NCBI GenBank assembly: GCA_964016885.1
Contig: OZ024758.1
Coordinates: forward strand, 3,782,001 to 3,846,000
DNA from: Eledone cirrhosa
Lineage: Eukaryota
Direction: 5' to 3'
DNA: 64,000 bases
Under the pieces are notes generated by a model. The model saw nothing but the letters and a program-made list of their open reading frames with translations. It had not been told where the DNA came from and did not search any database. Positions 19,984 to 20,215 of the stretch are shown here, in pieces. Each line of letters starts with the position of its first letter. Within the stretch, counting starts at the first letter, position 1. The position numbers and the translations under genes are program-made.

Positions 19984-19985
<2 letters not shown>

Positions 19986-20215
19986 GGAACGAGTAGGACC
20001 CCGACGGCTGAGCTCAAGCCGTTTCGACGGCTAATTGTGGACTAAAAAAAAAAAATTTTTTTAAATCTTTTTTTTTTAGTCCAGAAATAGCCGTCGAAAC
20101 GGCTTGAGCTCAGCCGTCGGGGTCCTACTCGTTCCTATTACCCACTCTACTACCCTAAGTATTGAGTACTTTGGTGCGTTATGGTCCACCTGGTTCCTTA
20201 CCACATTTCCTTCGT
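19984..20215 (+). mobile_element. Family A fold-back copy (best reference copy)
   Basis: Inverted arm 19984-20045, A/T spacer, full body 20076-20215, TA on both sides. Confidence 0.9.

Follow-up and report, generated by a model that had tools for sequence, protein, structure and literature searches.

A very abundant non-coding repeat of Eledone cirrhosa TA microsatellites, with half a hammerhead motif and the layout of a Penelope-type insertion

Family A, sampled here in a 64,000-nucleotide stretch of the Eledone cirrhosa genome (the window), is a very abundant non-coding repeat of roughly 140 bases located within TA microsatellites. All 13 copies listed in an initial sequence-only reading were found again at their positions (13/13), and a profile search revealed no further copies in the window. 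One unit of ~138 nt, with positions 20078-20215 as the reference on the GAAAC strand, underlies all 13 copies. It consists of a 60-nt segment, designated B (20078-20137), that ends in ttccTA, followed by a 78-nt tail (20138-20215), with a single 5′ start and two fixed 3′ ends that abut (TA)n. A tail arm and a short, tail-less arm are arranged head to head in 10 of the 13 copies, the short arm terminating at the internal ttccTA site and the tail arm at the opposite end of the copy (Table 1). The exceptions are copy 30398, with two short arms, copy 29947, with a single arm, and copy 49812, in which a tail arm is paired with an arm that ends at a third 3′ end (reference 20186), used only in this copy. 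The two fixed termini proposed from the sequence alone are evident in the 10 copies with a tail arm and a short arm, but their exact letters are less regular, with ccttcgt present in 7/13 and taggaa in 6/13 copies. All 13 copies touch TA-rich tracts, and pure TA tracts of at least 12 nt make up 7.6% of the window. The short arm mostly extends fully to the 5′ limit and the tail arm is often cut; in four copies (766, 18670, 19610 and 39735), the short arm lacks 1 nt at most and the tail arm is missing 54-115 nt. The arms overlap by 50-60 nt in 6/13 copies. A MITE-like inverted repeat (18870-19133) adjoins copy 18670.

Table 1. Positions in the window of the parts of the focal copy (19984) and of the other family A copies; ref, position in the reference unit.
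Feature	Position	Strand	Description
Left (TA)n target tract, focal copy	19948..19983		
Short arm, focal copy	19984..20043	-	Whole 60-nt B, from fixed 5′ AGT (20043) to internal ttccTA end
Filler between focal arms	20044..20077		A-run/T-run; likely untemplated additions to both cDNA ends
B segment of focal long arm	20078..20137	+	5′ limit A20078; internal 3′ end ttccTA
Hammerhead-like 3′ half	20096..20118	+	GAAAC, 5-6 bp stem round palindromic loop, GTC; without CUGANGA half
Tail	20138..20215	+	78 nt between both fixed 3′ ends
Right (TA)n target tract, focal copy	20216..20243		
Copy 766	766..895		Tail arm (-) cut at ref 20145; short arm (+) from ref 20079
Copy 9496	9496..9685		Full long arm (-); short arm (+) from ref 20084; subfamily 2
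Copy 14395	14395..14652		Mosaic of four pieces with mixed subfamily alleles
Copy 18670	18671..18825		Tail arm (-) cut near ref 20132; full short arm (+); subfamily 3
Copy 19610	19611..19696		Tail tip (-) of about 25 nt; full short arm (+)
Copy 21600	21600..21795		Full short arm (-); long arm (+) from ref 20085
Copy 29702	29702..29897		Full short arm (-); long arm (+) from ref 20083; no differences between arms over 55 nt
Copy 29947	29947..30083	+	One arm from ref 20079, a few bases past TA tract
Copy 30398	30398..30528		Two full short arms; subfamily 3
Copy 39735	39735..39853		Full short arm (-), filler, tail from ref 20175 (+)
Copy 49812	49812..50016		Arm (-) from 5′ limit to ref 20186; tail arm (+) from ref 20132
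Copy 56697	56697..56899		Full short arm (-); full long arm (+); subfamily 3

Sequencing runs carrying the same species label were compared with positions 20050-20219. Four of the 23 runs listed were used, and 24,245 contigs (run X1), 25,184 reads (run X21) and 3 contigs (run X4) matched; the RAD-seq reads represent a biased subset of loci. Run X19, presumed to be RNA, gave 0 records, a blank that says nothing about expression. Both 3′ ends recur in these data, and the junctions are therefore fixed outside the window, as they had been predicted to be genome-wide. The short end is present in 3561 raw reads (X21) and 105 contigs (X1) that exit the unit at 20138 into a TA run. For the tail end, 10,469 reads overrun the ends of the stretch compared, and 1281 reads continue from a variant tail end into TA. 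Among the 13 opposite-strand joints listed (17 more exist), one side lies at 20075-81 in 10, at 20088, the clip point of subfamily 3, in 2, and at 20094 in 1, and the other side is scattered over 20082-20176; four of these 13 have a 3-letter or 1-letter overlap at high depth.

A shared 5′ limit, noted in the sequence-only reading, is real, but the band of 15-25 nt upstream of GAAAC given for it is wrong, since 16 of the 21 GAAAC-bearing arms start at 20078 or 20079, at an AGT that is 17-18 nt upstream of GAAAC. Three more start at 20083-85, and two, both in the mosaic copy 14395, are ambiguous. Every copy has at least one arm starting at 20078/79, and none of the 21 arms reads through the limit, which also holds in the single-armed copy and where the partner arm is cut far away. 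Subfamily 3, with 76-88% identity to the reference, begins in the same register. The base preceding AGT, scored in 14 arms, is T in nine, C in four, A in one and G in none, and the one to three pyrimidines flanking AGT, including both upstream bases, vary within each subfamily. The centres of the copies have no constant loop, with A/T runs, AGATC, AATCTTT or fillers present instead, and an A-run opposite a T-run in the focal copy. The bases before AGT and the A-run/T-run fillers would have been added without a template once the cDNAs had reached a real RNA end and run off it, and the variable A/T fillers favour such an RNA 5′ end. As untemplated bases, they would give TTAGT and TCAGT, previously read as an initiator-like start, an appearance that was remade at insertion rather than inherited.

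Loose ends that precede 20075 are heterogeneous, with an agreement of 0.45 (967 reads) and 0.54 (98 contigs) as compared to 0.67-0.80 for ends in TA runs; 13 rows of loose ends were listed and a further 377 exist, so that a minority class of longer copies is possible. The expectation that longer copies would carry CUGANGA was not borne out, as none was seen and the loose ends, in the 13 rows listed, agree only at this level. Pattern scans of metagenome and viral contigs gave no matches, but the general family motif was also absent from them and the scans are therefore silent on longer copies. Identical 11-letter strings end the loose-end consensus before 20075 in runs X1 and X4, the latter with a different organism code and 2 contigs. 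This string has no exact match in the window, and may reflect either inverted arms blurred together or a true upstream extension in some copies.

The hammerhead-like 3′ half has the sense orientation, with the 3′ end of the unit about 100 nt away. PLE hammerheads are documented in such a position near the 3′ end (PMC4209133, PMC8557442), in Hydra families about 10-190 nt from it (PMC8557442). A GAAA, six Watson-Crick pairs and UH are all present, a combination matched on either strand by 13 of 5000 dinucleotide shuffles in a post-hoc test. There is no CTGANGA within 40 nt upstream of the 16 arms checked and none, allowing one mismatch, inside the reference unit; the CUGANGA core, with stems I and II of a type I hammerhead, is absent from family A. 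The description of a hammerhead 3′ half without its CUGANGA partner is thus confirmed. A comparison with Rfam gave no match at the gathering score and no ribozyme among 93 weaker matches, which included palindrome-driven miRNA matches. No covariation was detected in any helix tested, the score of the GAAAC..GTC stem was reached in 291 of 500 shuffles, its ACGGC strand pairs equally well with an identical upstream GCCGT, and the folds of single arms do not outscore those of shuffles (z -0.46 to 0.73). In the GAAAC..GTC block we see a likely relic of a hammerhead, one that would not cleave alone.

One heptamer of the tail, from 20171, resembles a core, with 6/7 matches and only in the old copies 49812 and 56697, and was not accepted as active. 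By eye, and relative to consensus features, HDV-like, twister, pistol, type II/III hammerhead, Y-RNA and tRNA readings did not fit. The opposite strand was also rejected as the RNA, since it is the outer ends that adjoin the target and since complete hammerheads in neighbouring families run in the same direction as the family A motif. In subfamily 3, the first 11 nt of an arm pair with the stretch immediately before the T-run in 5/7 arms, as in 30398-30459 (minus strand), a pairing that closes B as one domain and is not present in subfamilies 1 and 2.

Three subfamilies are visible by eye in the alignment. The arms of the six simple overlapping two-arm copies differ at 0/55, 2/54, 2/60, 4/52, 9/50 and 9/50 positions, and both arms belong to the same subfamily in all six, although a shared time of activity would also have this result. 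The four least diverged pairs have five non-CpG substitutions, two of which are at sites that are dimorphic throughout the family, 20087 in copy 19984 and 20125 in copy 21600. The variants shared by the arms of copy 29702, originally regarded as private, are common subfamily alleles that account for about 12% (20115T), 46% (20125T) and 25% (20130G) of the summed depth in run X1. The argument for one template, or for conversion, in copy 29702 therefore rested on alleles that are widespread in family A, and in both 19984 and 21600 the arms are distinguished by dimorphic sites. Together with the mosaic copy 14395, these dimorphic-site differences hint weakly that an insertion may involve more than one RNA.

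There are several other repeats in the window. A second dispersed family of ~200 nt is more abundant, at about 26 places (for example, 3100-3324, 34080-34284 and 58211-58425), and presumably resembles a tRNA-derived SINE; ARAGORN found nothing in it. Family C, at 59183-59331 (minus strand) and 30198-30360, has a TA-bound 3′ end and a complete minimal hammerhead with a long stem II (z -2.2) and a palindromic stem III, with the copy at 59275 complete. In the palindrome at 30198-30360, the native stem II loop and 5′ strand are retained and the inverted GAAA side replaces CUGAUGA; stem II-centred inversion does occur in this genome. A TA-bound element at 107-289 (minus strand) has a hammerhead-like core, with CTGACGA at 211 and GAAA about 45 nt further on, and a similar pyrimidine-rich end, so that complete cores are present in two TA-bound families that neighbour family A, at 59275 and 211, both on the minus strand. 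Head-to-head TA-bound palindromes of other families are located at 30708-30781 and 30807-30931, the latter with a central CTGATGA, and rearranged or inverted pieces of another TA-bound family at 21858-22031, 59367-59560 and 60038-60197. By eye, the last ~17 nt of family C resemble published octopus Naiad ends (PMC8557442), to which the last ~15 nt of family A bear a loose likeness. In the published 3′ ends of Naiad_Obim/Naiad_Ovul and Naiad_Esco (PMC8557442), GAAAC is upstream of CTGATGA, and a stem III (5 bp), a UH triplet and a stem I (6 bp) can be discerned by eye in both unrelated sequences, with the strand order swapped and no canonical stem II. These ends may represent a hammerhead with its strands exchanged. 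In the same source, half-core ends from nematodes and a spider have the normal strand order.

We propose, with about an even chance of being correct, that family A is a non-autonomous, SINE-like element of Penelope type, and that a borrowed RT/endonuclease copies its short RNA from the two DNA ends of the cut. We take as established the anatomy of family A, its fixed ends, its sharp 5′ limit and its lack of a complete hammerhead, and from these we infer the following steps. The enzyme would cut both strands of a TA tract, with one DNA end then priming at the end of the tail and the other at the internal ttccTA, 78 nt upstream. Each cDNA would be extended toward the 5′ end of the RNA, the short cDNA usually running off at AGT and gaining untemplated purines, read as T/C or as the A-run/T-run fillers. 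The two cDNA ends would then be joined head to head, often through a short microhomology that trims the tail arm. The presence of complete short arms in copies with cut tail arms argues for priming from both DNA ends rather than fold-back, and joints with one side fixed and the other scattered point to a run-off cDNA end joined to the other cDNA. Twin priming by both target strands, as originally suggested, fits this arm geometry and also the behaviour of a purified anole PLE protein that cuts and extends both strands at AT-rich DNA in vitro (PMC11167929). This protein, a predicted dimer, initiates in vitro at two internal sites, between which the tail lies, and does not require ribozyme activity (PMC11167929). 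Octopus Naiad and Hydra PLEs are reported to have (TA)n targets (PMC8557442).

The 5′ end of the family A RNA is likely a transcription start, the weakest step of this account. It is favoured by the precedent of the D. virilis Penelope, in which the promoter is internal to the pLTR (PMC2377424), and by the lack of a visible parent. The Penelope downstream element and family A match by eye at only 4/8 bases, and the extra G that a copied cap could leave is present in no arm. More speculatively, the TA tract might serve as a TATA-like upstream sequence and a YYAGT site of initiator type might be restored by the untemplated bases. An unlikely extension of this idea is a "Penelope-SINE" that copies itself, has lost its ORF together with half of its ribozyme, and has its promoter rebuilt at each insertion in this way, (TA)n becoming the TATA-like element and untemplated bases YYAGT. 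Were it true, the very many two-armed copies would record how a single dimeric enzyme primes at both DNA ends, sometimes on two different RNAs, to generate inverted pseudo-LTRs and tails.

With the same twin priming, the 5′ end could instead be a cut by an active ribozyme located just upstream in a rare, longer parent PLE, a reading that we consider improbable. The template would then be the ~138-nt 3′ cleavage product, and the copies, equally improbably, would be dead ends. The sharp, uncapped-looking end, with no G at -1 in 14 arms, is consistent with such a cut, as is the position of the published Hydra hammerheads relative to the 3′ end (PMC8557442). The first 11 nt of subfamily 3 also form in-register pairs with a stretch of GGGTCCTGACT type, after which comes CT, resembling a stem I (9-10 of the 11 pairs in 5/7 arms; shuffle P 0.02-0.12, in tests that are not independent). 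However, this pairing is absent from the three subfamily 1/2 arms tested, has no covariation and is not followed by CUGANGA, and no parent was seen. Families C and D, moreover, were inserted uncut, and for the anole PLE uncut RNA is reported to be the main substrate, with no RNA reads that start at the ribozyme cut site (PMC11167929). A parent with CUGANGA and a stem II of ~18 bp, its loop just before AGT, could also generate half hammerheads if the cDNAs annealed or folded back and were trimmed at the loop. Family C appears to do so, to judge from its palindrome at 30198-30360 and the complete copy at 59275; no short RNA is then needed, some published Naiads have long core spacers (PMC8557442), and the 3′ half motif is above chance (13/5000 shuffles). 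This origin is nevertheless quite unlikely for family A, as the centres lack the constant loop that a stem II inversion leaves, the limit holds in the single-armed copy and opposite far-cut arms with no read-through in 21 arms, and CUGANGA with an inverted stem is not in the loose-end consensus of the 13 rows listed.

A single cDNA that folds back or primes itself, self-priming on an antisense template, or a DNA-transposon or MITE-like unit with later central deletions, would account for head-to-head palindromes, for the identical arms of copy 29702 and for arms of one subfamily in 6/6 simple overlapping copies. We regard these readings as very improbable. In the four copies that have a short arm complete to within 1 nt and a tail arm short by 54-115 nt, fold-back is excluded, barring later deletions that in every case left one arm intact to within a base. 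The two ends are also not terminal inverted repeats, one copy is single-armed, and the arms of copies 19984 and 21600 differ at family-wide dimorphic sites.

The origin of the inverted repeats and tails of PLEs is described as open (PMC8557442, PMC3846280, PMC11167929), and self-priming on an antisense template has been proposed for their inversions (PMC3846280). Family A provides short natural junctions in very large numbers (24,245 contigs in a single run), which have fixed reference points and, on both arms, subfamily markers. An assembly alone would allow tests of twin priming, of fold-back and of models with one RNA or two. A minimal, non-coding substrate would define what the PLE enzyme needs in cis, and hairpin copies, if transcribed, could be a source of double-stranded RNA.

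Family A likely belongs among the non-autonomous PLEs, with a partner enzyme not found in the window, where the 150 of 208 complex stop-to-stop frames scanned gave no RT or GIY-YIG match and, in this microsatellite-rich sequence, no convincing Pfam match at all. An autonomous PLE was rejected, with a unit of 138 nt and RT/GIY-YIG absent from these frames. No motif match to an autonomous family was present in the published Naiad/Chlamys/Hydra consensus file (PMC8557442), in which line breaks can hide matches. A tRNA-, 5S- or 7SL-derived SINE was rejected with no hits by ARAGORN or Rfam, both of which miss degenerate heads. A MITE does not fit ends that are asymmetric in 11/13 copies, a variable centre and a copy with a single arm, nor does a non-LTR retrozyme, as tandem complete-hammerhead units are absent. 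Family A is not named in the literature consulted, and one full-text search for its motif returned no papers, with Repbase and Dfam outside this search. A catalogue entry for it may exist, perhaps among unclassified SINEs or MITEs; an O. vulgaris repeat paper has many unclassified SINEs and no such family is described in its main text (PMC13282606).

In the published Penelope layout, the pLTR is inverted and one arm may carry a tail (PMC3846280, PMC8557442). Family A resembles the inverted pLTR plus tail of Penelope/Poseidon, Neptune, Naiad and Hydra elements in having head-to-head arms, a tail on one arm and (TA)n targets (PMC3846280, PMC8557442, PMC11167929). It shares a sense-strand hammerhead-like motif near the 3′ end with endonuclease-containing PLEs, but has no ORF, is only ~138 nt, lacks the CUGANGA half and has a fixed 5′ end, whereas theirs is variably truncated. 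The tail, the distance between the fixed 3′ ends, is 78 nt as compared to the published 30-40. Non-autonomous Chlamys elements such as MRC1 are also non-coding, with PLE-type ends and presumed mobilisation in trans, but have pLTRs, form head-to-tail multimers and have 3′ sequences in common with a known partner, whereas family A is head-to-head (PMC8557442). Non-LTR retrozymes are likewise short, non-coding PLE derivatives with hammerhead motifs, but are tandem units, each with a complete type I hammerhead, whereas family A is dispersed and inverted, with half a core (bioRxiv 10.64898/2026.07.22.740005). L1 twin priming similarly involves a second DNA end that primes internally and an inversion joined by microhomology, but the internal site of L1 is variable and the arms overlap or gap by 1-10 bp, whereas in family A the site is fixed and the overlap is 50-60 nt in 6/13 copies (PMC11702581). 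In how it works, family A resembles a Penelope-type insertion.
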